Source: Amphiscolops sp. MND2022 (lineage: Eukaryota). Taken from it: a stretch of 64,000 bases of DNA. Below, one piece after another: positions 12,143-49,100 of the stretch (the stretch's first letter is position 1; the number at the start of each line of letters is the position of its first letter). The stretch is from positions 22,322,001 to 22,386,000 of the forward strand of contig OZ076409.1 of assembly GCA_964187785.1 (NCBI GenBank), given 5' to 3'. The notes beneath the pieces were generated by a model. It was not told the origin of the DNA, made no database searches, and saw only the letters and a list, made by a program, of their open reading frames with translations. Position numbers and translations under genes: made by a program.

Positions 12143-12247
12143 GCTGTAGCTGCTACCCTTTAGCACAGTCTACGACACCACCACTATTTAATTTAATCTA
12201 CCATCAAGCCTCTATGTTTTTGGTCAAGTAATGTAACTGGTGGTACC

Positions 12248-13078: not shown

Positions 13079-13295
13079 TTTTTTCCATTTTCCTTATCAT
13101 AACACGCATGGTATTTATTTCCTTTGTTTAGCTTTTAAGTGTTTCAAAAGTTCATGATTGTTACCACTGCTTTCTTTGGAGCATTGGTCATTTTTTAAAA
13201 ACAAATAAAAAATCCTAATTCATAATTGTATTCTCTTCAGGCCAAACTGGTTGCTTTACTTTTGTGTCCTGCAAAAAAGTCAACCTGGAGGTGTA

Positions 13296-13810: not shown

Positions 13811-13880
13811 CCATCTTTTCGTTTGCTACGATAACTGAGATTAAAAACTTTCAACTGTTAATTATACTTCACTTTTCATT

Positions 13881-15218: not shown

Positions 15219-15696
15219 CAACACTCAGTTAACGGACCTAATCAACAAAGACCCAGTACTCAAATTCCGGTTTCGAGGTTGTTACGCCCGAGATACATTT
15301 CCTGCCTTGCAAAAAAATGGATTCATTATTGTGAACACACATCCCTCAACTCAACCTGGTGAACACTGGCTACTCATCGCTTCGAAAAATGACACAGTGT
15401 TACTTTACGATAGTTTCGGGAGTGATTTCCGAGAGTTTTTTGCGGACATCTTTGCAAAAGTTGGTCGATCCGTTCGTCCGAGAAATCAAGGTATCTTTCA
15501 ATACAAGCCATCTTCGACGCTACTTCAGCCTGCTGATAGTCAATTCTGTGGCATATAATATTGTATTTATTTGGCACATTTTTACTATAGAACAAAACAG
15601 TCACTTACAAGCGAAAAATTGATTCAAATTTCGAGTTTTCCGTCATATGCCACAGAAGAAGACGTTTTGAGATTTTTAGTCCATCTTTCAAGATAG
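15211..15696 (+). pseudogene. Adenain-like cysteine protease with in-frame TAA at 15556-15558
   Basis: FRGCY, IVNT..STQPGEHW (His), YDSFG (Asp), LQ....QFCGI*YCIYL (Gln/Cys); frame continues to TAG 15694-15696; ATG overlaps MCP stop. Confidence 0.92.
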
Positions 15697-15852
15697 CGCA
15701 TGATAATATTTCAGCTCAGAGTTTGTAAAATTTGACTGTGCAACTTTACTGACATAATTTTTATCAATGTTTTATGTGAAGTATAGTAATTTACGTGTTC
15801 AGTATGTTCGTTGTTTTTGTTTCAGTTGCCGAGTAGCCTTAGAGCAGCTTTT

Positions 15853-16587
15853 ATGCAGCTGCGAAACTCGTTAACGGGTTTGGTTGTGACACCAAACCAA
15901 TTCGAACGTGCTGATAGCATTTTACGTTCGATTTCCGCAATGCTCTCTGTGAGCTCGCGGACAGGGTCCCGTATTCCTCCCCCGGCCAATGCGGAAATGA
16001 GCTTGCCATCGTTTAATTCATTTCTGAACAACCTCTCGTTGCAGCCACTTCCAGAACAGCAGCCGGAAGAGACAGCTACAGAAGCTAGCATATCGTCTCC
16101 CGAAGTCACCTCCGATGCGGCCCCTGTCCCAAAAAGACGAAAACGTCAATTGACAGAGGCCGAAGTCAAAGAGAAACTTTTGTCCGGCTTGCAATCACCG
16201 TCATCATCACCTGCGCTACGAAATGAAAACTTATTTGATCGTTCTGTGGACTTCGGGCAAGTCTGCCGAAGAATACTTCAGCTCGAGCGCGAGCAGAATT
16301 TAGGTCTGATAGACCAAGTCTTTTATATCGGAGGAATGGTTGTGGAAGTGCTCCAGCACCAACTCGCAACAAAAAATTGCGCTCGCATTGCCAGCGAGCT
16401 TCAGAAGTTCGGTGTCTTCCTGGGAAAGACCAAAGTCGCGGAGGCAAAAAGAATATACGAGCTCTCTAAAAAGTTCCCGAAACTGAGGCGTGTTCGCACG
16501 GGATTCTCGCCGATGGAGCTTACACAGAGCGTTCGGCATTTCGAGAACATTTGTTCATCCGACCGCGACTTCTGGTCTCAGGAGTAG
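15853..16587 (+). CDS. Hypothetical nuclear protein (NLS PKRRKR, helical C-terminal domain)
   Basis: Intact ORF (first ATG 15853), last gene before the terminus; possible splice acceptor at ~15825. Confidence 0.6.
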   Translation: MQLRNSLTGLVVTPNQFERADSILRSISAMLSVSSRTGSRIPPPANAEMSLPSFNSFLNNLSLQPLPEQQPEETATEASISSPEVTSDAAPVPKRRKRQLTEAEVKEKLLSGLQSPSSSPALRNENLFDRSVDFGQVCRRILQLEREQNLGLIDQVFYIGGMVVEVLQHQLATKNCARIASELQKFGVFLGKTKVAEAKRIYELSKKFPKLRRVRTGFSPMELTQSVRHFENICSSDRDFWSQE

Positions 16588-23606: not shown

Positions 23607-23944
23607 GAATGGATTTCTGGTTTCCCAAATAGTCAACTGCCGTAAAATAAATGGTTGTAACTTTGCAAAAAATGCACAATATTTTACTTGGAATGCGGTG
23701 AAGACATGAAATCATGTGCGAGTGAAATATTAATCCAGCAACCGTTTCCCAAATCCTTCATTTGATTAAAAGTTTACTCAATCGTTAATTTCGTCATATC
23801 AATTTAAAACTAAAAGACAATTTTTGGAGACCTGAGAAGGAAGCCTAATTGAGTGCTTGTACTTCTAGGAAAGCGCCTCACTTTGGTACTTTCTACTTCA
23901 TATACTGTACTTTGAGAAAAATTGGTTCTGAAAAGTTTCGGTGC

Positions 23945-24657
23945 TGTAACGATAAGCGCTGGCGCTTGAACCGCAACGTAGAGTGGAGGAACTAGAACAG
24001 CGAATGTAATCCGGGACTTAGATCTCCGCGGCCCTAGCTCATTTTCCCTCCGAAGGAGCCAGTCCCAAGGTGGGGGAACCGTCTTGTTGGAAACTCTCTG
24101 GCCTGGTCCTAGTCTGTAACTGCTAAAAGTAACGGGCATCTTGCATGTCTCAAGACCACTGCTCAATTAGCCTTTAAAAAGGGGGCTGAAAACAGGAGGA
24201 TGTTGAGCCATAGTATTGGAGAATCTGATAAAATCGACATCAAAAAGGGTAACTACAGATGTAAATGGGCAGCTCTCGAGCATATCAATCTACTACAACA
24301 AGGAAAGCACAATAAGCATAACAGTATTAGAAGTTTGAGTTATTTAACAAGAGCGAATCGACCATGGCTTCCCAGCGCTAGCGCTCGTCACCGCACCGGA
24401 CACCGCAGGATCTTCAGGCGAGCATCTGGAACACCGGTTTCTGTTACCTATGTAGTGTAAACGCCAAAGATGGGCACATCACCGTGTTCTAGGGACTGCT
24501 TTTTACGTCTTCTCTTCTCGTCGTCTCTCGCGGGGGCGATTTCTGATTTCTGATCTGCTTTTCTGACAGGTCTTTCGTCTGGAGCATGTTTGAGTGCCAC
24601 GTCAGATTTGAACGAATTTTTGCTTCGAAAATTTTGACATGGGCAGTTGCCGTTACA
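23945..24657 (-). repeat. Gypsy 3' LTR
   Basis: No difference seen by eye versus 42116-42828; purine-rich GAAGCCCGGGGAGTGA (minus strand, 24658-24673) directly upstream as PPT. Confidence 0.97.
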
Positions 24658-25424: not shown

Positions 25425-28400
25425 TTATTGGGCTGAGCTGCGTCGAGCTCGATTCTTTATGGCATCATCGGGAGTTCCTGGATTGCTGGCATCTTCCGAC
25501 GCATCTGACGCTCTACGTTGAGCAGGAACCACAGTAACTACTGTTTCCGAGTCTGATAGGTCTTCTGGGAGCGTTAAATCGGCGATCGGCTGCACCAGGA
25601 TAGTGTTGGGGGTCAGTTCCGCGGCGTGTTCTCCGGTTTGGGGTTGCGATGACTGAGGACTGGCCTGTGTCGATGGTGGACTCACAGGCTCTGGCTGCAG
25701 AATATGAGTAGGCAAATCCAGAGTCACGGGCCGGTCGGTGGGCTGACTTAGTGACATGGCCATTGTGGGTGCCAGCATGGCAGGCGCGAACGCCTGTTGT
25801 CTCTCGAGTTCAGCTCTACTCTCCACGGCCAAGGATATTCGTTTGGAGACCCAGCCAGGCTGTCTCCAGAGCTCGCAAGCTCGCTTCCATTTTGGGAAGC
25901 TGGCAATCTCCAGCTCCAAGCAATGTCCTTCCCACTCTGCGCGGGCTTCGGGGCCTAGCACGGAATTGATCTCATCGTGTTGGACGATGGACATATCCCC
26001 TGACATCGTCATCTTGGCCTGCGGTCGCCAGGCAGCTCTTCTAGGGAACGGAGTCACGCGGCTTTGCAGGTTCCTCTGACGAGTCTGAGCTGCTCCTTCA
26101 ATCCAGTTTGGGATCTGAGCCAATTCCATTTACTGGATTTGTCGATTGAAGGCTTCAGGGGCGCGACCAACGGGTTTTGCTCTGGGCCATCCCAGTGGCT
26201 CCTTCCAGTAGTGATTTGGGAAGGTGATGCAGTTGAAGGCGTACAGGGGATCTATTGGTGGACCAGCACTAGTGCTGGCACGGATCACCTTGCGTATAAA
26301 CTCCTGCGACCAAGGGAATCTAAAGGGGACTCCATTCAGGCTGAGAGGCGCGGAGTACCAGTTGACTGGGCCGTATTCTCGTGGCAAAGGGCACGCTTTT
26401 CGTGTGCGGGCACGCAATAGACCCATCAAGTTCTCTTCCAGCTGTTTCTCCGACTTCAAGGTGGTGTACCCATGCGGCATCTCGCCACTCAATACAGCCT
26501 GCACAATGCGCTGATAGGTCAGTGGGGGGCGTCCTTGGAGATAGGTGCAGAAGGAGACCATGTGCACCTGCACTGCTCTCGCCAGTGGTTTGGTGGGATA
26601 CTGGCACACACCGACCGCACCGAAGATTGGGGCCAGGACGGAAGCCATAACGGCCACGAAGTCCTCACTTCGGCCAGAGTCAAATCGGCGATTTGCTGGG
26701 GCATAGGGAATCCCGTCGTTTCCGCAGGGAGTTGACGCTCGGAATTGTGGAGGGGTTGCGATTGATCCACGCCTACGAATAAGCCAGAGGCGAACACTAG
26801 GGTGGAATACAACCAATGTTGGAGGGACGCACGCATGCGTTCCAGCTGGGTGACATAATCTTGCTGGTCCTTGGTATTTAGGAGATGACCCCATCGAGTT
26901 AGGCTGCGTAGCTGTCCCTGCGCGAGGATCAGGTAGCTGTAAAAGGTGACTAGATCACTGGATACTACCAGCTCGACTAACATAGCCAGGGGACCTGCCA
27001 CAAACTTCGTCGGGCCCATGGTTAGCGCGAGCGCTAACATCTCTCCTACAGTAGTTTCGCCGATGGTTTCCAACAATTTGTCAGTCTGCACATTGGTGAG
27101 CAAGTACTCAGAGGCTATTACGTCAATGTTCCAGCCTAGTCCGAGACTGGTACAAAAGGCTTCCAAGGGACAGTTAAGCTCTTGAGCTACCTCGGCCAAG
27201 GTCCTGTCCACGAATCTGGACTGATACCATTCGGCATACGTTATTCCGGCGGCATCTACTTCAGTCTTCAAGTTGGTCGCCTCCACAGCCACGACGTACC
27301 TCATGCTCACGGGCAACCTGACAGGCTCTATTCCCGCGGCAAACCGAATTTGGGGGATGGTCCTTTCGACCGTGCGTGTGGCAGGCCAGGTTTCAATTTC
27401 CTTCACGAGCTCTGCCAGCTCTGCTCGTACGGGAATTTCTTTGTCTTTCCGCCCCAACCAGTTGTATCGTCGAACGGCCTCTCGCTCACTCATGTTAGAT
27501 GCTCGCATGACGCGATTCCCGTCCAAGTCGAAGGCCATTCGCCCCATACACATTCCATGATCGAACAGTATGGCGTCGTCGATAGTCAGTTGTGCATTTC
27601 CTGATCGTTCCACAGCGATTAGCACTCTTGATACAGCAGCAAAGAAGGCGGGGTATGACAATGCATCGGGGCGTAGGTCTCCGCGATCAACCCGAAGATT
27701 TGGCGCACATATAGCAAACTCGATTCGGCGCGCCTTGCATACCTCAGACAAGATGTACACAAACTGCTGCAAGCTTCGTTGCCAATACATGAATCCCGGC
27801 GGGGATGTGAAGAGCGCGAGCGCTCCCAGACGACCCCGAAGGATCCCTGCTGCACGCTCCATTGCGTCCGCAACCACGTTTACTAAGGTCGCCACATTCC
27901 CAGGTCTACGGGTATCTGCCATGAGGGCATCCAGGTTGTGTAGCAGTCCTTCACAAGCCATGTGGTCGATCAAGTTGGTGAAGACTACACGTCGCGGGGG
28001 CGGCTCTCTTAGGGACCCTCTCAGATTTGGGTCGTACATAACCGCGACCATCTCTGCAACCTCGGCGAAGCGGGAGAGTGGCATTGTTAACACCAGCACA
28101 TCGGGCAGAAGGTTATCGATGGGCAGATCACTCTTGAATGTCGAGTCTACCGCTACACAATAGCGCGCACGCTGCAGAGCTGCTTTCAGGAGGGGCTTCA
28201 TCGACCTGATATTGCGAGCGTAGCGGGCGTTTGCTTCCCAGGTTTCTCCTTCGTGCAATATGTACCTGGCGGGAAAATGCTCGGTGAGGTCGTGCTGCAG
28301 GCGAGCCATGTAGTTGTTGGTTGTGGCGGGCAGTTGCTCTCGAGCACGCTGTTCCCAGGCTTGCTCACTTAGCTCCGCATCACGGGCACGTAGCGATCGA

Positions 28401-29704
28401 GTTATTTGAGCCGCAATGGTGATTCTGCTCACCTCTCTTTGCTCGGCGTCCGACGGCGGTGCTCTCCTTCTAATCGCACATGTGTTCGGGTGCAAACACT
28501 CTGCTGCCATCCAGATGCGTTTGCTATCGCTAGTTACCACGGAGCCGGATACATCATCTGACGGGGGAAGAAAGGCGGGAGGAGTGGTCTCTTCGACTGT
28601 CTCGGGCACCTCCAGGGACATGTTGGCAGAGCCTGTGCCCAAGGGCACAGGATTCGTTTCAGGATTCGCATCCACACTGCCGTAGCGGTTAATGGCCTCT
28701 TCCAGGGACATTTGAGGCGCGCCTACGCCCAGGTGGCCGACGCGATATGGAGGCCTCACGACCACTACACTCTTCATTTGCGATTGCTGGGGTACATCTG
28801 CTCGCTTGTCCGGAGGGGGACGACTGGTCGGACTGTCGGTCACGGAATTATGGCGTGTAGCGACGATGTTTTCCTCAGTAAGTCGCTTCCGTCCAGTTTC
28901 CTCACGGGGATAGGTTATGGCGCCGGTGCTTGGTCCAGCCGTGGTTTCTGCTTCCATAGACACAGCTTCGGCTAGGGTGGTGGGTGGGGTGACACAGCCC
29001 GAGGGCTGAGCTGCGGCTTGCAAGTAGTGTGCCAATCCGGGAATCCTTTGCACAACTGCACGAACGAAGTCAGAGGAGTTGGGGTAGTTGGCGACCGCTT
29101 GCAGCGCCACAATCACCGCTTGCTCGCTGGCACTCCGTCCGATAAGATTTAGATTAGGCACTGATGGCAGTTGGGACCCCGAGGGCTCCCGACTTGAGGC
29201 TGGTTGATTGGTAGTGTTTTGCGTCGTCGTTGCCTGGGTTCCATACGGTGCCCCATAAGCAATCGAGCTAGAATGCGGCGTCATCTGCACTGGATTTGGT
29301 GCCGAAATGGAAGGCAGTGATGGGACGTTGACGGGCATCATACGCAGTGATGCTTCTTGTTCGAATCTGGTGCCCTGGCTAGGGCCATGCACTGCGATTG
29401 ATCTTTCGTCCAAGAACTGGTGAGTCAAGTCGTGCCCATCCCAGGCATTGTTGGTGCACGTCAAGGTGCGACGATAGCCTGCCACCTCCGTAGTGATTGA
29501 CAAGGATGCATTTGGCAGCATTTGCATCGATTCAAGCTGGGTCAGTAAGGCAGCCACCCCAGCTACGGCTACTGGCGAAAGACCGTCCCGCAGCCTTTCT
29601 TCGACATATAGGGCCTGATTGACCCTCTGCGCACGCGCAGATTCCTGGGGCCTTGCACTATTAGACCCTGTTGCAGGCACTGAACTGTTTGGGCAATGGG
29701 CCAT
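25425..29704 (-). pseudogene. Extra ORF3 downstream of pol (~1420 codons), SGNH-hydrolase-like central domain; one frameshift (~26665) and one stop (26130-26132)
   Basis: ORFs 26519..29704, 26130..26894 and 25425..26129 join into one reading frame; motifs VAVDS, FTNLIDH, DLRP; no signal peptide or env-like architecture. Confidence 0.75.
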
Positions 29705-30005
29705 TATTGCATAGGTCTAAAAAGGACCACTGTTAGACTTACAGGGGCAAGTTCTCTCTGGAGCGAGCCGTGGGCCGGTTCGTCCTTCAATTGCAGCAAT
29801 GCAACATCGGCTCCGTAAGGGGGCCACTACAAACTTAAAATTTAACTCTAACTAACTAACGAACTAGAACAAAACCTTTGAGTAAACAACATGACAAGTT
29901 AACATCTCGAGAGCATTTCAAGACTCTTCCAAGGTTGTTACAAGAATTGTTACCAAGACAAAGACTGAGGGCAAAGGAAAAATGGGGACAACTAAATTAA
30001 TAAGG

Positions 30006-33000
30006 CTACTCCAGCCCTATAGTTACTATTGATACATATACGCGGCTATGCAAAACCACGCGAATACCAGTACCCTCGAACATGTTCGTTAGAGTATGGT
30101 ACAGATTGACCAACGAGAAAGCCGGTCTCTCGGGGTCCAGAATGGGTAAGTGGACCCGTGTGGATCCTTTATCTATCAGGCGCTGTATCAAGTACGTCAT
30201 GCAACGCAAGTAGTCATCGGTCAGCAGCGGTGCGCGCTGGTTAGCACGGACTATTAACAGGTGAATACTTTGGTTAGGGTTGGGGTTCACATCAGGCGGG
30301 ATAGTGAGAATCTCGCCCACTTTAGGTCGTAAGGCAAATACATCTTCTATGCCGCACTCCCGCAGCACATATCGCAGGGCGGCAGAGTTGGTCTTTAGGT
30401 CAGCAGGGCATGCTAACACTATGTCGCCCTCGGCCTGCAAGAAATCAGATTCATCGTAAGAGACATTATCGGCTGAATTCGGATACAGGGCTCCCGGGTA
30501 AACAATCTCTCGTCCGGGACCATTATCGGAGGGCAGACACACGCGAGGCGTACGCCCTTGGACTGCAGCCAGGTCTTGCCACACTGAGCGGGGCATCGCT
30601 CGATTGTCGCTGCCGGCCTTTACCCACGCATCTAAAGTTCCCAGGGCGGCTTTGGGGAACAAGGGGATCTCGAAGGTGTGAGTCCACTCGTCTAATAGTC
30701 GAATTCTGGGATAGGTGGCGAAACATGTGATAATTAATTCCAGCCACCACGCAAACTTCATCTTGCCTCGGTACCAGTCTATGATATGGAAGCAAAGTAT
30801 TAAGTCCACAGTGGTGAGGGTCCTCAGACTCTCTAGACAGGATAACAGATTCAACGGTTCCACCAACGCCTCCACTCGTGGAGCTGTTACCAGCAGCCAC
30901 CAGTGAGGAGCCGGGCTGTATACCCCTCCTGGTTCCACCTGGACTCCATACTTGTCGCATAACAAGTCGGCAGTGATGCATCGGGCCATCTGCACAGGTT
31001 CCCTTTCAAAATTGAATGGTCCAAACGCAATATTGCTGGGCACAGGGGGCAACACCGTGGGCAGGGTAAACTCCAGGCCCTTTCCATCGCTAGTCCACTC
31101 CTTAAACCTAGGACAAGGGGCCTTCGCTACCCCGGGCAGTGACAACTTCTCCAGGATAGTGTCCACAGGGTGGTCTCCGGACCGCTCTACAGCCGAGTAG
31201 GTTTTCTCGGCCCGCACCGTGAGGCGGTACACCAAGTTTTCTCTCTCTTCCGGAGGAACTCCCCGGGCTCCAATGGGAACCCTCCGGTTCTCATTCACAG
31301 CTAATAAGCAGACACAATCTCGCAGCCCGCAGGTTCCACATTTGTAGCGCGGCTGCCGTTTACTCCTTAGTTGATACCTAGGAGCAGTTGCAGATGCCTC
31401 TGTTAGCGTCTCTGCAGTTCTGGGAGCTTCCGTTTCGGCCTGGATCGCAGTTTCGGTTTCGGCATTTCTCGGTGTTTCTTTCTTCCTCGTCCTTGCCTTC
31501 GCTCGGATCAGCCGTTTCTTCTGTGCCTTGGGTGGTCTCCCCCTCCCCCTTTTAAAAGAAGGAGCGGTCCCCGCTCCTGGCGAAGTCTCGGGAACTTCAG
31601 GCAGATCGGGCTGAACGTTGCTGTCGCTGCTGGCAGATTTGAGAGGAATCGGAGGGGCGGTCGGCCATATGGGATAGTTACTAAGAAAATTGGTTAGCGA
31701 GGGATTCGTCAACAAGGATGCTGAGGTTCCTGGTAACGATGTTTCTTTTTCGGAGGAGGATATCTGTGGAGACGGTGAGCGCACGCGCTCATGGTCAGAG
31801 AACAGTTGAGGTAGTACACGGGCAGGGGATATCGACTGATCCAACGCAGTCGGAGGAGCCGCAGGCTCCACTAGATCCTCGTCAACTGGAGGTATCGGCA
31901 ACATGGCATCGGATAGTTCGTCGTCTGTACCTGAGGTGGAATAGTCAAATTGCTGATAATGCGGGCGGGAGCCGCCTGCGCGAAGTTTCGTGCGTAGTCG
32001 AGTGTCCATCCAGTGACGTCGACGTGAGGGCAAAGATGCATCGGACGCTTCTGAAAGTAGTTGTTCGGGTTTATACGACGATAGAGACTTGTCGTCATCA
32101 ACTACGTCGACGGAACGTTCAGGTTCGGGGTCCATAAGGACCACCACCTCACCACTGTCCGTGTGTGCAGTAGCAAGTTCAAGTGGGCCACTGTGGTGCG
32201 GTTTAAGACGCTCAAAATGAACCTTTTGACCTGTGTCTAGCACATAGACACGACCGTCCTGAAAGACTTGCACAACCTTGTGCGGGCCTCGCCAAGCACG
32301 CATCAATTTCGGGGAACCCTTTTGCGGTACGTAGCGGCAAAATACCCAGACGAGCTCGCCTACTTGGTAAGCTCGCGCTTGTATAGCACGGTCGTACTTC
32401 AACTTTTGACGCAATTGGGCTTGGTGCGTGTTACGCCGTACCAAGTCATGTATTTCCTGCTGGCGAGCCAATACATGATCGACATACGCCTCATGCGACT
32501 CGAATGATTTGGCTGCAAATTCGGGATACAAGAACGTGAGAGGGATTGCCTTCTCTACACCACGGGTCAGCATGTAGGGTGAGAAGCCAGTGGTGGCGTG
32601 CCTCGTAGAGTTGTAGGCGCCCATGACCTCATCAAGACATTGGTCCCAGTCGCGCATACGGCGGGAGCAAAAAACTCGCAGTAGGGTTAACAGCGTCCGA
32701 TTTTGACGCTCCACCAAGCCTTGGGTTCTCGGATGGCTAGCCGTAGAGGTTACTTTGGTAACGTGGGCTGCTTTTAGGAATTCGTTGGACACCTCAGCAG
32801 TCAAATTTGGAGCATTGTCAGATTGCATTCTAGTGGGTGTGCCATGACGGGCGAACCACTTTTGCAGCAGCAACCGAGAGGTAGTCACAGCGTCGTAGTC
32901 GTGATGACTACAGGGACTGCTTCCGCGAACTTGGAGAAATGGTCAATTATGACCAAGATGCCAGTGTTATTACTGTCTGAGGGGCAGATCTTCAGATGAT

Positions 33001-36000
33001 CATATGGGACCAATTCGTTGAAGTACCCGCTCTGGATGTTCTTTAGGTGGAATCGGACGTCACCAGGCTTATCTCGAACTTGTTGACAGGTGAGGCATTG
33101 GCCAACGTAACGGCCCACGCTGCGTCGAATACCAGGCCATGTGTGACGTTCTTGAATCCGAGCCACCACTTTGGAGATACCTTGATGTCCCATGGCGTCA
33201 TGCGCGCGGAATAAAATCTCATGCTGGTACAGTTGAGGCATGACGATCATGCACGGACGTTCGTGCAGGGGACGTTGCTTGGGAGGGTATCGTACGCAAA
33301 GCACACCATTCTTGTTAATAAACAGGAGAGTTTTCTTCTGACGGTAGTAGTTGCGTGCGAACTCACGCACGTTCTCGGGAAACACGTCATGATCGATGGG
33401 TTCGTTTAGCACCAACTTTTTGAGTGCTAGCACATGAACATCACGGTTTTGGGCTAGAATCAAATCTTTGATACCATGCACGGTGTGAGCATGTTCGTGA
33501 AGTTCAGTGTTGATGTCTTTAAGAGCCATAATTGAGTCACGTACACCCGAGGGAGTACCTTGCAGCGCAACAGGATTCGCCCCAACAATGGCATAGACGG
33601 TACGTGAGGGTACATTTACGGCATGCGTCGGTAATAGATAATCTTCGCGTGCTTCATCAGTGACATCAATCCAGTCCTCAGGGTAGTCTGGATAGGCATC
33701 CTCGTGCGGTTGCAGAGCAAGGGAAGGCGGAGGCGGCAAGGGGGCTGCGAATGCTTTTGCTTGTCTGTCCCTCCTGCTCGCTCGTTTGGTGCGGCGAAGC
33801 ACACGTAGCAATTGGTTGGGAGCCTTAGGCTCCAAGTTCTGCAGGTGCGCAGGTAGCTCGGGATGATTCGGGATGACTCGACCCTGAAGGTCGAACCATG
33901 GGGCAACAGGTAGTTTATCAAATTCGTCAGCTGAAAGGAAATTCCAGCGTTCGCCCGCGGCTGGCTGCTGTGCAAGCTGTTTCTCTCGGCATCGATACTC
34001 GTTGGTTCGTTTGCTCAAGCCATCGGCGTTTCGATGTTGAGTTCTTGGGCGGTGTTCCACGCGAAAGTGATACTTTCCAGGCTCATAATCCATCGGCCGA
34101 TTAGCGCTTGATCCGTGGAGAAGGTTTTCAACCAGGACAAGGCTTGGTTGTCCACCCGCAGGGTGAATTTCCGGGGACATAAATAGCTGTGGTTTTTCAC
34201 TATGAAATAGTAGGCGGCGAACATTTCAAGTTTGGGAGCTCCGTATCTAGCTTGCGTGGTAGTGAGCTTCTTGCTACCGTAAACTATCGGTCTCAGGCGT
34301 CGTTCACCCGGAGGACCTTGCCATTGGTGCAGGATACCCGAAATGGCGACAGCACTAGCGTCAGTGTCCAACACAAACTCTCCTTCGGAATCAGGCTGCG
34401 CGAGCGCAGTTGCCTCGATCAGGGCTTTTTTGATCTCATTGAATGCGGTTTGTTGCTCAGGACCCCAGGCGAAGGTGGCATTCAGTCCAGTGACGGCGTG
34501 CAGGAGTGCAACCAGCTTAGCGTGCCAAGGGATGAATTCGCGATAATAGTTGGCGAAGCCAAGGAAACTCTGCATCTCCGTCTTGTTACGGGGAATTTCC
34601 CAATCGCGCAACTTGACGACGGCTTTCGGGTCGGGCTTCACTACTTCTGCGGAAACCACTCGTCCCAAATACTTGATCTCCGATTTCATGAAATCGCATT
34701 TGGCCACGCGCATTTTGAAACCGGCTTCACGGAGGCATTCAAAGACTTCACGCAGGCGTACCATATGGTCTTCCACAGTCTCTGTGGCGATCACGATATC
34801 ATCAATGTAGGCCATGACCATGCTGCCCTCACGATTGACAATATTCTTAGCGCACGCGCTATTGACCGCTGAAACGTGGCAGATGCATTGCACATACCAA
34901 ATGGCATTCGCCGCCACTCAAAAAGTCCTAGTTCACAAGCGAAAGCGGTTTTGTGGCGATCTGCCTTCCGCACAGGAATTTGCCAAAAGGCCCAAGCAAG
35001 GTCTATGCTGGTATAAATCTTCGCCTTGCCTAGCCGTGCCAGGCTTTCATCAATACGGGGCAAGGGATAGGCATCCTTAATGGTTACCTCATTTAACGGG
35101 CGGAAGTCGCAGCAAAAGCGCAACTCCCAGTTTTTCTTTTTCACCATTACAATGCCGCTCGCCCAAGGGGACAGCGAGGGCTGTATCATTCCCAGAGCTA
35201 AGAGGTTCCGCACCTCCTGATTGGCACGTTCGGCCTTCTCAGGGGACATCCGGCGAGCACCTTCGCGATGCGGTACAGCCCCTGGTTCCACCTCCACGGT
35301 GTGCTTAGCGATAGTGCACCGACCGATGTCCGCTTTGTGTTTCATGAATAGTTCATCGAATTCATCGAGGAGGTTACGGAGAGACTCGCAGGCGCTAGCG
35401 CCCCATAAATCCTTGACCGCCTTTAGCTGAGATTCTGGCCCAGGAATCGGAGCCATTAGCTCTGAGTCTGTTCGCTTGCGAATTTCGCGCTCCGATAGTC
35501 CTGCCTCGCTAGGGTCAGTTGAGGACAAAAACTCAAATTCTGAAGAAAAGGTTAACTCAGAAAGATTCACTTCACTATAAATTTTATGAACAAAATTTGC
35601 ACGACTGTCGTCGGCGTCAGTTTTTGTGCGGGTTGTAGTGGGAGAGTCCAAACATTGAGGTACTGCTTGGTATACTACCGTTATGGGTACTACGGAGCCC
35701 AGTTGTACACCACACCGCATGCGTTGAGGGTTGCTGGTGAGATTTATCAGGCTCACAAAGAGTATTCCTGTCTCACTGACAGTGGCCACGCTGTCCTCTA
35801 AAAAGACGACATTGTGCAACGTAGTGTCAGACAAAGAGGCATTGAGCGCTACGCTTTGAAAAATCAGCGGCTCTAGTGCATTGGTGACGAGCTTGGCTCT
35901 AGCCACCGCTCGTTCGAAAGGTTGCAGGACCAAGTCACTGTCCAAAACGACTGGAGTAGCTATTGAAGTGTCACCTACCTGTGCGTGAGCATGATGCCAC

Positions 36001-36563
36001 ACAGGCTTCACTGGTGCTCGCACCACAATCTTCATAGATGTTAGATCCAATAACAATTGGTAGGAGCGAAGAAAGTTCCGGCCAAGTAGGAAGTCTTCCA
36101 CACCCATTGCGTCATCTACCACCACAAAGTTCGTTTCAAGTTCGTATCCTCCCAGCTGGAAATGGATATGTTCTGCGAGGCCGTAGGTCTTTATTGTCTT
36201 CCCGTTGGCTGCGTACAGGTCAACTTGGTAGGGTTTAAGGACCGTTCCAGTTCGAGCTGCCACTCTGTTGAAGGCGGAAAACGTCAGTATGGAGACGCCC
36301 GAGCCAGTGTCCACCATTCCTCGCAGTGGGATAGGTGCTGCATGAGGCACCACGAAAGAGACCACGAGCGACGCACGCTCATCTATACGCGCTTCACCGG
36401 TGGGCTCCTGATGATTGATGTTATAGCATTTGAGCTCCTGGGGACCCAGACAAATGCCAGGGGGAAATACATCCACCACCACACAGGCTTCGAATTTCAT
36501 ATCCACTCCATCCATTGAAGCGCAGACTGGCACTGGGGAATATGTTGTCAGAGTCGCAGACTC
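30006..36563 (-). pseudogene. pol: Gypsy pol: protease, RT, RNase H, integrase with long C-terminal extension; frameshifts near 34850, 34075, 32910
   Basis: VDTGSG; KDAYPLP, MPFG, AYIDD; DTDAS, VDNQAL; HDAMGH...CLTC, IDHFSK, QSDNA, GLVERQN; WRGPHKV. Confidence 0.95.
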
Positions 36564-39549
36564 TCACGGAGCGTACCATTCTTTCGGTCGAGGCAACTCG
36601 TTTCGTTTGTAGAGGATAGACAATTCGACCCATAGCTTCGCCAGAGTTAGCGTCGGCCTACGTGTTTGCTCAGCTGCCAGCAACAGGTGAATTGAAATCA
36701 GCGTCCGTCCTTGCGGATCGAACGTCGTGGGTTCCAAGCAGGTCTGAACTTGCTTAGCACCACAAGTGAATGTCATCGGAGTGTGGAACGCAGGCGGTTC
36801 CGCTGGATGTAGCATCAACACACGGTCATCTTCCAAAGGTACGGTGTGCGCGGCGATGCCAGCTGATTCGACCTCAGCCCATCGATTGTAGGCTAACTCG
36901 TCACTGGGCTTCGGCGCATGGGAGTGCTCACCACATTGCACTTCCGCCTGATCGAAAAGTCCACAGCTCGTGCATTGATAGATCCCCGGATGACCTTCAA
37001 GGATACCATCGGTCGTGTCTTCCGTGGTCACCTTTACGCCCTCTGGTTCGGAGGCAGTCATTGGTTTTCGGGCCTGGTCACGATTGGGGCACTCGCGAGC
37101 AAAATGTCCGCTTTGCCCACAGTGAAAACAAGCACCTACCGGCGCTCGGGCGGGCGCTGGGACAGCGGGAGCTGGGACATTTTGGGGGGGGGGGCGCCGG
37201 AGGTGGCAGGACGCCCTGCGGCATAACCATCTTGTTCGGCGGCAGTGGTGCGAAAGGATGAGGTCTAGACCTCATGGCTAATCTGGGATCATAGGGTTGT
37301 TGAGGTTGGGTGGGTCTGGGACGATTTCGTTGCAGCTGACGTGTGGTAAATCGCAAGGACTCCACGGTAGGGGGTTCGGTAAGAAAAGTCTCCGAGGCGT
37401 ACACTATGGCGAGTTCACGCCTCAGCACTGGATCTCGCACACCTTCCATGAAGCGTTGCAAGATTTCATAGCGTTTGGTAATGATACTTTCTTGCGGGAA
37501 TCCTTGGCTCCTGAGACCCTCTAAAGCGTCTAAGTACTGCATCCAGTCCTCTTTTTCTTGTTGGACGCGGCTTTGGAAGGTCTGCCGCACCTGCATACGA
37601 TTTCCTCCCGCGCCAAATCGGCTAGATAGCAACTCGAACACCTTCTCGGGGGTGTCACGTTCAGACTCAGCCTTGTTGATGATGTAGTTGCGAGCCTCAC
37701 CCTCGAGGTGACCGATAATGCTCCAGGCCCGATCTTCGGCCGAGATTTTGGTTTGGACTCTTTTCAAGTATCGCTGCATCACTAAAATCCAGCCATCAAT
37801 AGACCCGTCCTTAGAGCCTCGATACACGCTGGGTTTGGTTTGAGCCAGGTCACGTCCCGCAAGCAACGGTGCTAGTTCTTTGGACATTGCTTTGGAAATG
37901 GCGGCAGTGAACCTCAATTGCTCGGGAGAAATGATTTCAGTCTCTCCTTCCTTGGGTGCCACTTCATCAGTACCGTCGTCACTGCCATGCGTAGCTCGCA
38001 CTGAGAGGTTCGCCACGTCTTCTTTCTTGCGAGTGCTACTCGCACAAGGAGCGCCCGAGGGCATTCCATCCTCGGCTGTCCAGTCGGCGGTCAGATATAG
38101 GGAGTCCGTTCCAGAAGCCATGGTAGGGGCCGTCGCATACGCAGCTCCATCAGTCTGGGACCCTAGTGTGGCCTTGGTACAGGATAAATCAACTTCGGTG
38201 GAAGTATCTAGATAGATAGGTGACATTGGGTCCACACCTTGGTCCCGGGTGGCACTTCGAACTACGGAGGAGGTTATTTGACTCATCGACGAGGAGTCGT
38301 GGGGCCCTCTTACCTGCACCCGTGCAGGTTTACGCTCCACATCAGCCATGATGAGTACGGGATCCTTGGTTCGGGTTTCAGGCGTCGTCGACTTGGAGGT
38401 GCTAGGCTTCAATGCACTCACCAGCTCGGGTTTCGTTGCCCGACCCAGGTGCGATGATTCCGGAATCTTATTTGAATCCGCGACTGGCGCACCTTCAGTG
38501 GCACCAGATTGTCGTGGGAGGGACCTTTCGCGCCTCATGATGTTGATAGCATTGAGCACAGTGTGCATTTGGTTACTCAAGTCATTGATCTGGGTTTCCA
38601 CACGAAGTTCACGGGCCATCAAAAGGTCATTCATCTCACCCATTCTGTAGCCTAGTGCATCTACGCGAGCACTCTGCGTGTTCTGCGCGGTTCGCAGTTG
38701 ATCACTGACCTGCAATCCTTCTCGCATCGTTGTCTGCAACGTTCTCATATTTTCAGCGATGGCACGATGTTGGTCATTGCACCCAGCACGAGTGCTAGCC
38801 AGTTCAGCTAAGGCACGTTGGGTCTCGGCTTGGGCTTCCAATATTGCGGCTTTATACACCGAAGATCGTTGGGACGATGCCACTGAACCTGGCACGCTCC
38901 TCGTACGAGGCACCTCAACTTGACGTTCACCTACATTTATCATGGGTGGTCGCACTTTCTTGTGTTTGCCATATGCACAAACTCTAGTGTTACCTCGAGT
39001 GACTCCAGACCCTTGCGGTCTCGCACAACTCGTGTTCTCCGTGTAGGTAAGATCCTCGTCCACCGTGATCTGTAGGCGGGAGCTCATCTTTTCTCCTGGG
39101 GGTGCGCGAGAGCACCCTTCCTCAGCTGCAAGTTCGTTGGTCACGTTCGAGTTGGGCCACTCCTCTTCTGCTTCATTGGTTCTTTCACGACAGGTTTCTT
39201 CGACCCATTGCTCGGTTCGACGAGAGCTTCCAGATGCAACGGAACCCTCAGAGGGAGGGACCATGGCGGCCAATTCCTCCTTGCGTTGTTGCTCGATAGT
39301 GACTTCGTCAGACATTTCGTCTGAAAAATGCGAACCGTCCATTGTGGATCCTATGGTCACCCATGACTGCGAACTCATGTCAAGCTTTTCCAGGCCTGGT
39401 AGTACCATTACACACGATGCCAATGGCAGAGCAGGTGTCAACGATTCGGACGTAGCCTTTAAAGAAGTCTCGAAGAACGCGGGATTTGTCGAGTCTCTGT
39501 TAGCTCTAGGCTCGTCTCGGTGTGGACTTAAGAAATTTGACTGTTTCAC
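36564..39549 (-). pseudogene. gag: Gypsy gag with long N-terminal extension; frameshift at G11 run 37184-37194
   Basis: Capsid-like KPSVYRG..DGSIDGWI...HLEGEAR...FQSRVQ; CCHC knuckle CFHCGQSGHFAREC appears after a +1 shift and reads into ORF 36564..37061. Confidence 0.9.
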
Positions 39550-42082
39550 AACGTCCCAAATTTCTCGAAATGCGTTTTAAGGCTCGGAGGTTGCTCAAAC
39601 TCGCACAGCGCTTTCCCACAAGCACACTGGGTCAGAAAATCAACCTGGTTTGGGGCCAAAAGCCTCCGGTCACTCACAGGAAGATTTTCAAAGAATTTTT
39701 GGATTTTCCAAAAATCGCACAACAATACTCAAGAGGCTCGTGTGTGCGCTGGAAGCGCTGTATCAAGCCCAAAATTGACCAGCAGATCTTGGGTACGCGT
39801 AGGTTCACGAAAATGAACACAGTTTTGAGCTGCGCCCCTTCTACACAGTTTCACCTAGGTACAGACGTGCGGTACCACTATGTACCGAAATACACTGTTT
39901 TTCACGTCTTTTTCAAGATTGTGGTCCACTGGAAAAAGCTAGCAAGCTCAAATTCTCTGCAGCAACGTAGGAACTAGCACAAGTTACGATGGTGAGCTGC
40001 AAAAGGGCCCCACCCGTCGGCTAAGGTACCCGGGTTACTTGGAATAATTTAGAAAAAACTACCTTTTTGCGCACCTTTTTGGGCGCCGCGTTTTTCCTAT
40101 TTTCTCGACAAGTATCACACAGATCGGCACCAAACTTGGTAGTCTATGCCTATGGGCACCTATAATGCCGCTAATATGGTCGAATTGAAGCGCAAGCGCT
40201 TATTTGAGGTTTCGACCTACTATGTACGTTGTACACGAAAAAACACTGTTTTTGACGACTTTTTTCACAAATTGACGAAGAGGATCACCTCAGAAAGTGA
40301 CACGGCGGTCAAAATGGGACCAACGTGTTGCCCCACTACCCGTAGCACTGGGATAAACCCTCAATCGGTTGTGCCCGTCAATTATAAGTCACTGACAGTC
40401 CTGCAGTTTTGGATCTTTTCGGCTTTTTCAGCTTCTCTGGAGTCAAAACGTCAGAGAGCTTTTCTCGACTTTGGGGAACGATACGCCCACCAAATTTTCG
40501 GCACTAACGTTGTTTTTGGTGGTGGTTACGAAGATGCAACCACTTTTTGGCTAGGGTTCGGAAATCGATGACCCGACCCTAGTTCAGAGACGGTCCGGTT
40601 TTGTGGAAAATTGATCAAATTCAGTGCGTTTTTCCACTTTTCTCAGCACTGATAAGGAATTTTTGCATGCGGTTTTCACTACAATGCGTTGTTTTTACTA
40701 TAGAAACAGAAAACGAGAGCACGAAAGCTCCTGACTAACAAAAAGACAGAGTGCCCAGGGGGTTTTTATTGTGTGCTAGGACACTCCTGAAACTAACTAA
40801 AATTCTAGGTTTTTCAACTTTTCTCGACACTGAAAAGGAGTTTTTGCACGCGGTTTTCACCACAATGCGCTATTTTTATTGCAAAAACAGAAAATAAGAG
40901 CGTTCAGACTCGCTCTGGTCCACTAAGCTTCACTCTCAAGACTTTCAGACAATGCACCTTCTATGCCTAAAAACACCTTAAATTACCGGTTTCTTTGCAC
41001 CGTGTCAGCCCCAGGCTGCCTGAATCCGCTGTAAAAGTTACAGTTAGTGTCCTGTGGGTTTACTACGCTTGACAAAACACCGTACACTGCTTTTTCACGC
41101 TTCTACACAAGTGTACGCCTGTGTTTCTGGGTGCCTTTTTGGTCAAAATTCCATTTTTTTGCAATTTTCTGGTGCTAGATCGGCACTTTTATCACAACCA
41201 AAGGCAAAATTGCGGCCTTCTGTGCCTCGTACTAGCTTTCTCGAGCCTTGCAGCTGCTCTTTACAACACTTTTCACGAAGTTTTCCTGGTTCCGCTGAGA
41301 ACAAGTGCTCAAAACCACGAAAAACACGAAAAAAACGCAAAATCAGGGTTTTTTCACGCAAGTGCTATCTTTTTTGCAGAAAAGCACTTCGTAGGGTGTC
41401 GTTACATCTACAATAAAACATTACTGACCTGCACCAACGATTCCCCGTCGAAAAAGGTGCATTTTCAAAAATTTCACCGACCATGAGCCATTTGAGCGAC
41501 GCGTCCGGTCACAGGGGGTGCACCTTCACCACGCTTTTTCTCCACATCCAGACCAGATAGAGACACGCGGTTTGGACCATTAGCATCGTCTGCGATTGCA
41601 CTTGCTGTCCACCAAAAACCATACCTCTAGGACGTCTCCACGAGAAATGGGAGTAGAAAGTAGGCAACACACAATTTGACTTCCCCTTCGCCTCGCTGGT
41701 TCATGGTCAGCCATCCACCAGTTACCTTCTTGCATGGCATAAAATGGCTGAAAATAGCTTGCAAAACCTGTTAAACACCTGTAGCCACGTGCTACGGTCT
41801 TCAGCACCTGCAAAAAGATACCCGCTGATGGGCACACAACACATCACACAAAAATATCGATTTCCTTCCAAAACACCTAAAAATACCATTTTCGCACCTG
41901 AAAACGTGATTTTTTCGGGTTTTCTCTGGTTCAACGCCTCTCCCAGTTCCAGTAGAATGTCACACGACTAAAAAAGGGTAGAACTCTGCTTCTCTCTCCT
42001 CTTCCAGAGTCGAAACGGGCTTGGCGCTGATTACCAGGGGGCCAGATCTTTTAAAAACCGCTAGGGAAAGCTTCCCAAGACG

Positions 42083-42100
42083 ATCCCTCTGTGGTCGCCA
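42083..42100 (-). promoter_or_regulatory. Primer binding site, probably tRNA-Arg
   Basis: Minus strand TGGCGACCACAGAGGGAT; plus strand ATCCCTCTGTGGTCGCCA resembles the 3' end of animal tRNA-Arg(UCG). Confidence 0.75.
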
Positions 42101-42115
42101 AAAAATGAGGTTCTA

Positions 42116-42828
42116 TGTAACGATAAGCGCTGGCGCTTGAACCGCAACGTAGAGTGGAGGAACTAGAACAGCGAATGTAATCCGGGACTTAGATCTCCGC
42201 GGCCCTAGCTCATTTTCCCTCCGAAGGAGCCAGTCCCAAGGTGGGGGAACCGTCTTGTTGGAAACTCTCTGGCCTGGTCCTAGTCTGTAACTGCTAAAAG
42301 TAACGGGCATCTTGCATGTCTCAAGACCACTGCTCAATTAGCCTTTAAAAAGGGGGCTGAAAACAGGAGGATGTTGAGCCATAGTATTGGAGAATCTGAT
42401 AAAATCGACATCAAAAAGGGTAACTACAGATGTAAATGGGCAGCTCTCGAGCATATCAATCTACTACAACAAGGAAAGCACAATAAGCATAACAGTATTA
42501 GAAGTTTGAGTTATTTAACAAGAGCGAATCGACCATGGCTTCCCAGCGCTAGCGCTCGTCACCGCACCGGACACCGCAGGATCTTCAGGCGAGCATCTGG
42601 AACACCGGTTTCTGTTACCTATGTAGTGTAAACGCCAAAGATGGGCACATCACCGTGTTCTAGGGACTGCTTTTTACGTCTTCTCTTCTCGTCGTCTCTC
42701 GCGGGGGCGATTTCTGATTTCTGATCTGCTTTTCTGACAGGTCTTTCGTCTGGAGCATGTTTGAGTGCCACGTCAGATTTGAACGAATTTTTGCTTCGAA
42801 AATTTTGACATGGGCAGTTGCCGTTACA
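42116..42828 (-). repeat. Gypsy 5' LTR
   Basis: 713-bp direct repeat of 23945-24657, TG...CA ends. Confidence 0.97.
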
Positions 42829-42953
42829 TCATATACTGTACTTTGAGAAAAATTGGTTCTGAAAAGTTTCGCTATCCATACGCTCTGCATGTAATCGTAC
42901 ATCAAATCACATTGTTCATGTTTAATGAAGATGGTAAACCAGAAATATGACAG

Positions 42954-45753: not shown

Positions 45754-46040
45754 TGTGTCTCACCGATAGCAATACTTTTCTAATGGCCGACCAGGCCGCT
45801 CCATCAGCCAAAAAATGATTAAAAAAGGAAAAATTATTATTTCCGGAAGATTTGTGTCTAGCAATTAAAACATACAGGATGCGGGAAAACAAAAACAACA
45901 TGTGAAAATATTTACAAAATGCCAAGGGAAATATTCATCCAAGATACATGTATGCTTTACAATTTTGAACTATAATTTGTTCGAAGTCAATTATTTGAAG
46001 GAATGATTCATCGATTTCAAATAAAATTCCATTCAGAACA
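45754..46040 (-). repeat. BEL/Pao 3' LTR
   Basis: Direct repeat of 52498-52784; minus strand TGTT...CACA. Confidence 0.92.
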
Positions 46041-46148
46041 TAACACCGCCTGCCTCGATTTCGCAGGGAAGAAATTAACAAGAGCGTTGAACACGCAAGC
46101 GCAATAAAATAAGGCACAGTAAAAGATATATAAGGTTAGGGAACAAAT

Positions 46149-49100
46149 TCATTTGAATTCATCATTGAAATTAGCATCAAACATTTTCTTCAATTTATGC
46201 ACCGGTCGATTAAAGATTCCTGTAGCGGTTTTTATTTTTACGACTCTCACAAACTTGTCTGGGCCGGTGTAGACATGTTGGATTTTTGCCAATGGCCACT
46301 GTAGTGGGGGAACATTGTCATCAATTACAAAAACAATATCACCAACTTTCAAAGTAGAAGTTTCTAGTTTCCTTTTATTTCTTTCTTGCAGGGAGAGTAC
46401 ATATTCTTTGACCCATCTTTTCCAAAAATGAGAGACCATTTTCTGTATTTGTATCCATCTTTTTGTGGGTGAATGTGTACTGTCAGGGTTTTTCAAATCA
46501 TCGGTAGTTTGGCTCAAGGGTAGATTCTCCAACTTTCCACCCAAGCAGAAATGAGCAGGAGTTAAGAAAAACTCGTCATTTGGATCTTCTGATAATGGGC
46601 AGATTGGTCTTGAATTCAAAATCATTTCAATTTGACAAAGTAGAGTACATAGTTCTTCAAAGGACAGAAATTTGTTTCCCATAACTTTTCGGAGATGTAT
46701 CTTTGCACACTTGATTGCTGATTCCCATAGGCCACCAAAGTGAGGAGCTCTTGGAGGGATGAAGAACCACTTGATGTGCAAGCCTGCTGCTTCAGCCTGC
46801 AAGGAGTCACAGTGTTATTCCTTAATATCTTTTGCAGGTCTGCTATTTCTTTCTCCGAACCAACAAAATTTTTCCCATCGTCACTATCAAGATTTTTAGG
46901 ACAACCTCTGCGAGAAACGAATCTTCTAATGGCTGCAATACATGCTGCTGTACTAAGATCGGAGACTAGTTCCAGGTGAACTGCTTTACTGGCAAAGCAC
47001 ACGAAAAGTGCTAGGTAGGATTTCTCAAGAGAATTCGGAGATTTCCTACAAAGGAAAGGACCAGCAAAGTCTAGGCCCACGTCCTCAAAGGTTTTTATAG
47101 GAGGGTCAACTCTTGTCTTTGGAAGATCTCCAATCAAGGGGAAAACTGGCTTCGAGTTGAAGCGATTACAATTGACACAATTCATTATCATTTTTCGAAC
47201 CAAATTTCTACAACTGGGAATCCAGAAACGAGTTCTATTGTGAGCAATTGTTTGACTAGTCCCACCATGGAGTGTCAGCTGGTGAGAATTCAATACAATT
47301 AGACGTGCGAGGTGACTGTCTTGAGGAAATAGTCTTTGAAACTTGTTTTCTTCGGGCAACTTTGCATGTACTAATCTTCCTCCGACACAAAGAATGCCAT
47401 TATCGAGAAACGGGTATAATTTGCAGATTTGACTCTTGGGCTTAACTTGTTGTGCAAATTCTAGAGTTCGGATTTCTTCCGAATATCGTTTCATTTGTTC
47501 TTGGCGAATCAAAATTATGATTGACTCTGTTAACTCTGGGGCACTAATGTAACTTGGTGAAACAACCACGTTCTTCTTCAGTTAGTTTGTCAATAAAACG
47601 TCTAGCGTAAGCAAGAATTCGGAGTACTTTGTATAAGGAGTTAAACCTCGACAAATCAATAACATCCTTTTCGGTATCCCTGTGAGCGACAGAGGTTTGA
47701 AGACTGGTAATTCCTGTTGTTAGAGTCTACTTTTTCAACTCTTCAGATGTTTCAACAATTGACAATGTTTTCGGAATTTCCTCTGTTAGTAACCACTTCG
47801 GACCATTCCACCATAGGTCATGTTGGTTCATTTCGTCAGGGTTAATTCCTCGAGATGCAGGATCCGCAGAATTCTCCTTGGAACACACATGATTCCAATT
47901 CAATTTGTTTTCACTTTGAATTTCACTAATTCTGTTTGAAACAAAAGTTGACCAGCAAGATGGTTCTTTTGACAACCAACACAGAACTATTGTTGAATCA
48001 GTCCACGCGAAGGTTTCTTCAATAACAACTGGCGTTTGACCAATAGACTTGATGACAGATTGATATAACCTAGTGCCTAGCAAAGCAGCACATAATTCTA
48101 ATCTTGGAACAGATTGTGTTTTCACGGGGGCTACCTTGGTTTTGGCAACAAGCAGGGATGACTTCCGTCAGCCATGAGAATCTGTGTCAACAATATAAAT
48201 ACAAGCGGCATAAGCCCTTTCTGATGCATCACAGAAGAGATGCAACTCAATCTTGTCCGAGAATCCATCAAGTAATACGAATCGTTGCAATTCCACATCC
48301 TTTAAAGAGATCAATTTCGTCCTCCACTTCAAATATTGGTCGACAAGTTCGGAAGGGAGGTGATCATCCCATGAAATTTTTGCTTCCCAAGCCCTTTGCA
48401 TTAACTGTTTCCAGAAAATGGTAACTGGTGACAACCAACCCAATGGGTCAAAAGTCTTTGAAATGTCACTGAGCATTTGTCTTTTGGTCAAAACCTTTGC
48501 TTTAAAGTTTTCCTTTTCGATGTGGGAAACCTTAAAAACGAAGCGATCTTCGCTGTGTTGCCAAACAATAGCGAGCGTTTTTATTGTATGATCTTTGTCT
48601 AAAAACTCCAAGTTATCATTTGCTTCGCTATTCTCGGGCGGAAGGTCTAAGATAATGCTGGATTCGTTCGAAGTCCACTTGCGGAGATCGAATCTTCCTC
48701 GTTTAAGAGTTTCTACTAATTGCTTTTGGAGTTTTCGAGCTTCATCGATCGAATTGGCTCCAGTGAGAATGTCATCAACATAAAAATCTTTCAATTTAGC
48801 TCTTTGAACCTCAGTGGATACTTCCGACAAATTGGCACATTCTCGCAAAGATCTGATTGAATGATACGATGAGGAAGCTACGCCATATGTAACTCGGGTC
48901 ATGCGTAAGGTTTCAACCGGACCATCAGCTGTAAATCTCCAGAGGATCCGATGAAAGTCTCGATCGGCTTTATCCAGCTCAACTTGCCGATACATCTTCG
49001 CTACATCAGCTGATAAAGCAGTCTTGAAGAAACGGAATCGCACGAGAATATTGAAAAATCATCTTGAAGTTTGGGACCAACTAGCAAACAATCATTAAGT

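Follow-up and report, generated by a model that had tools for sequence, protein, structure and literature searches.

Both captured domains on Gypsy-type integrases and macro domains in long terminal repeat (LTR) retroelements are already known, and macro domains also occur in some non-LTR ORF1 proteins and insect Gypsy polyproteins. The insertion sites of LTR retroelements are decided by modules at the C-terminus of the integrase, of which few kinds have been described. Chromovirus integrases such as that of MAGGY carry a host-derived reader fold, the chromo fold, C-terminal to the GPY/F motif, and for MAGGY targeting was shown (10.1101/2021.11.30.470311). Ginger1 transposases have a Gypsy-type integrase with a captured C-terminal OTU, Ulp1 or PHD domain; these are DNA transposons, and the word 'macro' does not occur in the main text that describes them (PMC2836005). 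In fish, epsilon-like endogenous retroviruses have macro domain open reading frames (ORFs) (Basta et al. 2009 as cited in PMC4977317). Here we analyse a 64,000-nucleotide stretch of the Amphiscolops sp. MND2022 genome (assembly GCA_964187785.1, contig OZ076409.1, positions 22,322,001 to 22,386,000; hereafter the window), which contains an 18.9-kb Ty3/Gypsy LTR retrotransposon on the minus strand. The integrase of this element continues into a long tail with two macrodomain homologues, D1 and D2, of which D2 has the predicted fold of the ADP-ribosyl hydrolase TARG1 and a remodelled ligand pocket. The tail thus resembles that of MAGGY in its position, with a macro fold in place of the chromo fold and with targeting that we infer, and it differs from the fish retroviruses, whose macro domains lie in additional ORFs (PMC4977317). 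In a limited survey of the literature on macrodomains in retrotransposons and on integrase tails we found no report of an integrase-fused macrodomain or of tandem pseudo-macrodomains in a retrotransposon; a prior mention may exist.

The tail is encoded by an ORF of 978 amino acids (aa), stop to stop, at 32942-30006; all features of the element given below are on the minus strand. The ORF begins with the remainder of the integrase core and a GPY/F-type motif (32199-32942), in frame with the tail. The end of the core matches Pfam rve (aa 17-71) and rve_3 (aa 65-114), both weakly, and the GPY/F-type motif (aa 219-248) is followed by a further ~730 aa, in agreement with the ~700 aa estimated in an initial annotation of this DNA. 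An acidic Pro/Ser-rich linker (31563-32198, isoelectric point (pI) 4.5) leads to an AT-hook-like basic stretch, KRGRGRPPK (31527-31553), a YxLR motif, YQLR (31365-31376), and a CxxC-x4-CxC motif, CGTCGLRDCVC (31308-31340), which is a possible zinc site. D1, a degraded macrodomain homologue, follows at 30687-31031 (residues 638-752), and D2, a TARG1-fold pseudo-macrodomain, makes up the last 148 aa (30027-30470). The initial annotation had placed the AT-hook and the Cys cluster correctly and had proposed the C-terminal macrodomain, but it missed the more degraded D1.

The AT-hook-like stretch has the R-G-R-P core with basic flanks and likely doubles as a nuclear localisation signal; RGRP appeared by chance in 0.6% of 20,000 shuffles of the linker. 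Among the relatives collected (see below), many of which are near-copies, 34 extend 70 aa or more upstream of the Cys motif, and 33 of them contain RGRP; YxLR occurs in 43 of the 45 proteins carrying the Cys motif, and of the 51 proteins covering this motif 45 retain every one of its four Cys. All three motifs persist in a subfamily at ~64% reverse transcriptase (RT) identity (P0299, P0251). The YxLR motif has the spacing of the acidic-patch anchor Y537-L539-R540 in the chromatin-binding sequence of foamy virus Gag, where a second Tyr also follows (PMC9040877). The foamy motif sits in Gag and has its second Tyr at +7 and +12, whereas the tail motif sits in an integrase with the second Tyr at +10. 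The Cys motif gave no confident structure model. The window ORF matched no chromo family of Pfam at E up to 1, and by this test the element is not a chromovirus.

Relatives were collected by a word search, which returned 50, and by a profile search, which returned 292 representatives at E up to 0.001, 150 of these listed; among the matches listed, D2 relatives reach down to ~30% identity. For modelling, the last 364 aa of the window ORF were aligned with 115 of 199 collected relatives, selected because they overlapped by 95 aa or more and contained little sequence beyond the overlap. The model has a mean predicted local distance difference test score (pLDDT) of 79.9, a predicted template modelling score (pTM) of 0.52 and two well-predicted domains, with pLDDT mostly above 90 in D2. 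For D2, Foldseek placed human TARG1 (also OARD1 or C6orf130; PDB 4J5R, 4J5S, 2L8R; ALC1-like class) at the top, with E 2e-9 and a template modelling (TM) score of 0.82 on the target. VIA aligned D2 with TARG1 at Z 17.9, with a root-mean-square deviation (rmsd) of 2.1 Å over 137 residues and 13% identity (model 211-353, chain 12-152); the runners-up were DarG (Z 15.0) and Poa1p (Z 13.6), and a wide structure search also put TARG1 first (Z 16.7). The predicted model of D2 has the alpha/beta/alpha macrodomain fold and superposes on solved macrodomains over its whole length. The TARG1-like C-terminal macrodomain proposed in the initial annotation is therefore recovered at the level of the predicted fold.

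Sequence profiles point in the same direction. Searched against the PDB, the D2 family profile matched five TARG1 sequences (E 1e-3 to 2e-3), its sole matches below E 0.01, and one unrelated protein at E 0.26. D2 as a single sequence had no match in Pfam, NCBIfam or the PDB, and the window ORF did not match Pfam Macro (PF01661; gathering cut-off 22 bits), which among the relatives reached one of 116 members at E 0.3 and P0189 with 11.5 bits, both under 22 bits. These tail macrodomains are invisible to Pfam; they belong to a high-copy lineage, with 90% clusters of 314 and 2541 members. A shallow profile of 26 rows found nothing in the PDB and gave a poor model (pLDDT 39). In the ESM Atlas D2 fell in a Macro cluster at 0.90, which we take as a lead only. 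A phage Poa1p-like macrodomain (NC_023557.1, P0254) was tried as a bridge to the family and rejected as too distant (hhalign <1%); its use was confined to displaying loop 1 of TARG1 and to rooting the tree described below.

The fold of D2 is that of TARG1, but its pocket is not. HMMER aligned D2 with 4J5R without a gap over the stretch that starts with the strand preceding K84 and reaches D125; TARG1 numbering was fixed by the 41-residue K84-D125 spacing (PMC9411070), and the register of loop 1 was set through the profile of a sister clade introduced below. In this alignment R899 (30248) stands at K84, and G121-C122-G123-L124-D125 becomes D-P-E-R-P, with D936 (30137), P937, E938 (30131), R939 and P940 (30125) at the respective positions. 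In loop 1, A854 (30383) corresponds to G43, N852 to G41 and D848 to D37. The catalytic Lys and the GCGLD loop, which the initial annotation had described as degenerate, are indeed both replaced. These changes are general in the family: across 151 aligned rows, the K84 position is R in 132 of 139 and K in 2, the G121 position D in 109 of 119, the G123 position E in 102 of 118 and G in 3, the D125 position P or S in 104 of 113, and the G43 position A in 129 of 138. No row has both K84 and G123 (0/151), and loop 1 is free of Gly in 154 of 156. Rows at no more than 50% identity (n=45) have R, D and E at K84, G121 and G123 in 36/40, 25/30 and 20/30 cases. D2 therefore lacks what defines a TARG1-type hydrolase, namely Lys84, Asp125 and the glycine loops (G43; G121-x-G123), and the family further differs from TARG1 in its extra N- and C-terminal strands, its integrase fusion and its duplication.

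In TARG1 itself the changes G43E, I44E and G123E abolish ADP-ribose binding and activity, and G43E and G123E leave RNA binding intact (PMC5928194). Because both glycine loops are gone and G123 has become Glu, the binding-dead change of TARG1, we predict that ADP-ribose binding has been lost. From these residues, reading of ADP-ribose by D1 and D2 appears unlikely.

A related domain is found at the end of a second, more distant group of proteins. One protein found by an RT search, P0374, matched TARG1 with its last 140 aa as a single sequence (E 3e-6), and a search with its C-terminal part returned a sister clade of 29 proteins, 28 of which match the D2 profile. An integrase-core match is present in 21 of the 29, ~50% identical to the window integrase. 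The sister-domain profile matched TARG1 with E 8.8e-9 over 120 residues, and TARG1 is the only significant PDB sequence match of both this profile and that of the D2 family; hhalign of D2 against the sister domain gave 99.9%. Sister-clade proteins have one macrodomain homologue, at the C-terminus, with the exception of P0375, a rearranged copy in which two partial macrodomains surround an integrase piece. P0374 is likewise unusual in that RT-RNase H is joined in frame to the tail and the integrase is missing. RGRP, RYxLR and the Cys motif are absent from all 29. Loop 2 of the sister domain reads D-P-N-R in 24 of 24 rows, where D2 has D-P-E-R; loop 1 is without Gly in 29 of 29, and the D125 position holds G in 23 and D in 1 of 24. 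Because the D-P-x-R loop is common to the two clades, the pocket was remodelled early and kept, and the predicted loss of ADP-ribose binding is likewise early. Intermediate pocket states exist as well, in that P0384, P0385, P0386, P0397 and P0401 retain Lys at the K84 position.

D1 has the strand and helix order of D2, with pLDDT of 74-97 by blocks. Its loop 1 and helix 1 are shortened, and its D-x-x-R loop is kept (D in 136/144 rows, R in 129/143), with Ala or Ser at the K84 position in 119 of 130. Aligned by hhalign with the D2 profile it scored 75% (E 2.6e-5), against at most 0.8% in 30 column shuffles; with the sister domain it reached 94.6% (E 6e-8, 109 columns), with a score of 51.8, where none of 30 column shuffles exceeded 19.9 and the reversed comparison scored 10.7. 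A D1-centred profile had no PDB match and the ESM Atlas no usable one, and in fold searches of the joint model D2 fills the lists, the tandem targets 4d86, 8ufm and 8yax alone spanning D1, at high rmsd. As judged from the profile comparisons, D1 is homologous to the macrodomain by way of the chain from the sister domain to TARG1. A tree built from 25 rows sets D1 and D2 each apart by a branch (99/99 for one, 100/100 for the other), which fits one duplication, although long branches meet at this point. The outgroup of this tree, P0254, has a long branch as well, so neither the root nor the order from single to tandem domain is set by the tree.

The fusion of integrase and macrodomains is stable. 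A single ORF runs from RT to both domains in P0297 and P0299, and from the integrase H2C2 to both domains in P0251. Compared with P0299, D1 is identical at 55 of 125 positions and D2 at 64 of 150, while the linkers are identical at 64 of 205 (the acidic linker) and 21 of 70.

Taken together, we tentatively favour the view, with a confidence that falls a little short of even, that the tail is a chromatin-tethering module with re-purposed pseudo-macrodomains whose partner is something other than ADP-ribose. This view follows from the position of the domains, at the site of the chromodomain, from the neighbouring AT-hook and YxLR, and from the precedent of the SARS-unique domain (SUD). The tandem macrodomains of SUD do not bind ADP-ribose and instead bind G-quadruplexes and Paip1 (PMC2674928, PMC8167360). 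Like the tail, SUD (Mac2-Mac3) consists of two tandem macrodomains without a glycine loop in a viral-type polyprotein; we regard it as a functional analogue, as its fold match to the tail is much weaker (Z 6.7-7.8), its context is coronavirus nsp3 and there is no sign of common origin.

In the scenario that we propose, an ancestor of the lineage acquired a single macrodomain of the TARG1/ALC1 class at the C-terminal end of its integrase, as sequence and model show. Both glycine loops were then lost, and the D-P-x-R loop fixed, before the split from the single-copy sister clade. The domain would have duplicated once in the present clade, an origin with which the tree is compatible without proving it; this clade also has AT-hook, YxLR and Cys4, which the sister clade lacks. 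D1 and D2 would neither bind nor remove ADP-ribose; the remodelled and conserved pocket face (D848, R861, E862, R899, D936, R939) might bind a host protein or nucleic acid, and AT-hook and YxLR could add contacts to the DNA minor groove and the nucleosome, comparable to the chromodomains of chromoviruses. In the boldest form of this idea a captured TARG1 enzyme was rebuilt into a reader of a different chromatin ligand and then duplicated, making it a macro-fold counterpart of the chromodomain with an undescribed macrodomain ligand; this we consider possible but doubtful.

Several observations weigh against this view. In the sister clade the domain occurs in tails that lack AT-hook, YxLR and Cys4, and therefore its old role need not be tethering. 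The AT-hook scores 11.1 bits in Pfam, below the 17.4 cut-off, and the YxLR resemblance consists of four letters and is a lead only. D1 and D2 are less conserved than the integrase core, which is identical to P0299 at 161 of 235 positions, and in this copy they are acidic (pI 5.3 and 5.5), which argues against plain nucleic-acid binding. The element's own protease could also remove the tail from the integrase. The stem branch of D1 in the tree is long (1.78), and the rows counted above are related copies rather than independent events. As for the pocket, D833, probably the adenine-contacting Asp, is kept in 117 of 128 rows; in the register given by VIA it corresponds to D20 of TARG1. At the K84 position 24 of the 29 sister rows have R and the other 5 have K, and P0189 retains Gly at G123. 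Finally, SCO6735 is active without K84 or D125 (PMC9411070). D833, the sister Lys, the Gly of P0189 and the activity of SCO6735 together leave some room for chemistry in these domains.

The strongest alternative, which we place on the improbable side, is that the pseudo-macrodomains act away from target choice. They might bind RNA or serve as a scaffold when particles assemble, in translation or in import into the nucleus, perhaps once cleaved from integrase, or they might be mimics that block a host partner in silencing or in the PARP pathway. TARG1 binds RNA outside its pocket (PMC5928194), and SUD interacts with RNA structures and with a translation factor (PMC2674928, PMC8167360). In addition, the macrodomain is the only part of the tail common to both clades, it is separated from the integrase core by the long acidic linker, and P0374 keeps it in frame despite its deleted integrase. 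Yet in the tandem clade the domains come after three chromatin-type motifs in one chain, and for the version with a cleaved tail no cleavage site was identified.

The initial annotation had proposed that the domain targets integration to ADP-ribosylated, damaged chromatin. A targeting role is also what we favour, but the route through ADP-ribose is not supported by the pocket residues. A non-canonical form of it, in which the domains still recognise ADP-ribose or poly(ADP-ribose) and direct integration to chromatin that is damaged or PARylated, would be in keeping with TARG1 as the closest fold, with the kept D833 and D848, and with the conserved R857, R861, R899 and R939 near the old pocket, which could hold phosphates. 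Tandem macrodomains raise avidity in PARP14-type readers, which would also fit, and the irregular junction of the element, a 43-bp duplication with 4 unduplicated bases, is such as break repair could leave. Against this, neither clade retains either of the backbone-amide glycine loops, most of loop 1 is gone from D1, and the junction is a single case that may be an assembly artefact. Moreover, Glu at G123 abolishes binding in TARG1 (PMC5928194), and in the coronavirus X domain a single Gly-to-Ser change is enough to do so (PMC2674928). We therefore rate this explanation as quite unlikely.

The initial annotation had also raised counter-defence against PARP. In this form the domain would be an ADP-ribosyl hydrolase that removes PARP marks from the cDNA, RNA or proteins of the element. 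ALC1-class hydrolases do vary in mechanism, SCO6735 working without K84 and D125 (PMC9411070, PMC7050489), and Lys is present in 5 of 29 sister rows. In the family, however, the substrate-binding loops were lost along with the dyad, K84 giving way to R, GCGLD to D-P-E-R-P and loop 1 losing its Gly, and K84 and G123 never occur in the same row, which makes an enzyme very improbable. Least credible of all is a captured host gene fragment decaying without present function: the missing catalytic residues and the broken state of this copy would suit it, but the domains are retained in frame across subfamilies down to ~30% identity (among the matches listed), the derived D-P-x-R loop is shared, the duplication is retained, the fold is confident, and D1/D2 identity lies above that of the linkers.

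If the tail is indeed a chromatin tether, it could yield a new targeting module. Macrodomains that lack the ADP-ribose loops are few, SARS SUD being the example, and the tail adds a case from a eukaryotic mobile element. A TARG1-like domain in a transposon need not mean counter-defence against PARP, tempting as that reading is. The lineage also provides a natural series, from a single domain with or without the catalytic Lys to the tandem with AT-hook and Cys motif, in which a change from enzyme to tether can be tested directly.

The element that carries the tail is bounded by a 5' LTR at 42116-42828 and a 3' LTR at 23945-24657, each of 713 bp with TG...CA ends and with 0 differences over the 712 bases compared. 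The LTRs enclose gag and a pol in the order protease, RT, RNase H, integrase, as in Ty3/Gypsy elements, and the closest PDB match to the RT of a relative is Ty3. The gag region (36564-39576) encodes a PNMA-like capsid (Pfam PNMA, E 0.002) and a CCHC knuckle (zf-CCHC, E 4e-7), and pol (32885-36563) contains protease, RT, RNase H, an insert of ~300 aa and the integrase H2C2, as placed by Pfam and by tblastn with relatives. In this copy gag is disrupted by a break near 37200 and a stop at 36564-36566, where tblastn with relatives shows that P0289 has a single ORF, and pol changes frame near 34850, 34070 and 32930. These lesions may be real damage or assembly errors. Because of these breaks in gag and pol, this copy would not, in its assembled form, produce the tail. 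Contigs of one public sequencing run, listed with a share of 0.06, cover the LTR and 3' parts of the element but neither the flank nor the tail.

The insertion lacks the ordinary 4-6 bp target-site duplication, as seen at this one site. A 43-mer found twice in the window flanks the element instead: its left copy (23898-23940) is separated from the 3' LTR by 4 unduplicated bases (23941-23944), and its right copy (42829-42871) directly abuts the 5' LTR. The first three bases of the right copy recur beside the inner end of the other LTR, possibly as microhomology. The arrangement has the look of an irregular junction or of an assembly artefact; being a single event, it weighs neither for nor against the connection with the tail that the initial annotation had suggested.

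The insert of ~300 aa that separates RNase H from the integrase H2C2 (window ~34000-33300) matched no family; some sister-clade proteins, for example P0397 and P0372, have an insert there of up to ~2x this length. Extra ORFs of 1065, 274 and 234 aa (29716-26519, 26954-26130 and 26129-25425) follow pol ahead of the 3' LTR (25425-29716), and none of them matched a Pfam or NCBIfam family. P0049 and P0225 contain pieces of the 1065-aa ORF, so that relatives carry it too. We considered this ORF as an SGNH hydrolase, a guess that found no support. In P0400, of the sister clade, a partial macrodomain continues into a GDSL/SGNH-like domain (Pfam E 1.3e-6), probably through a deletion that fused pol to an ORF downstream of it. 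A sequence resembling a primer-binding site is found at 42093-42115, its TGG starting at 42100 on the minus strand, 15 bases from the end of the 5' LTR; such sites usually lie 1-3 bases from the LTR end.

Other mobile elements are present in the window, among them a Polinton-like and a BEL/Pao element, neighbours that suggest an animal host. An inverted copy of the element's 5' leader (39510-41835), 83-88% alike, occupies 58704-61245, with no LTR or pol matches to it within the window. A Polinton/Maverick-like element with protein-primed PolB, an A32-like ATPase, an rve integrase and a capsid-like ORF, as assigned by Pfam, lies at 2-16587 on the plus strand. At 45754-52784 there is a broken BEL/Pao element (DUF1759, RT, Peptidase_A17, integrase, DUF5641) flanked by 96% identical direct repeats.

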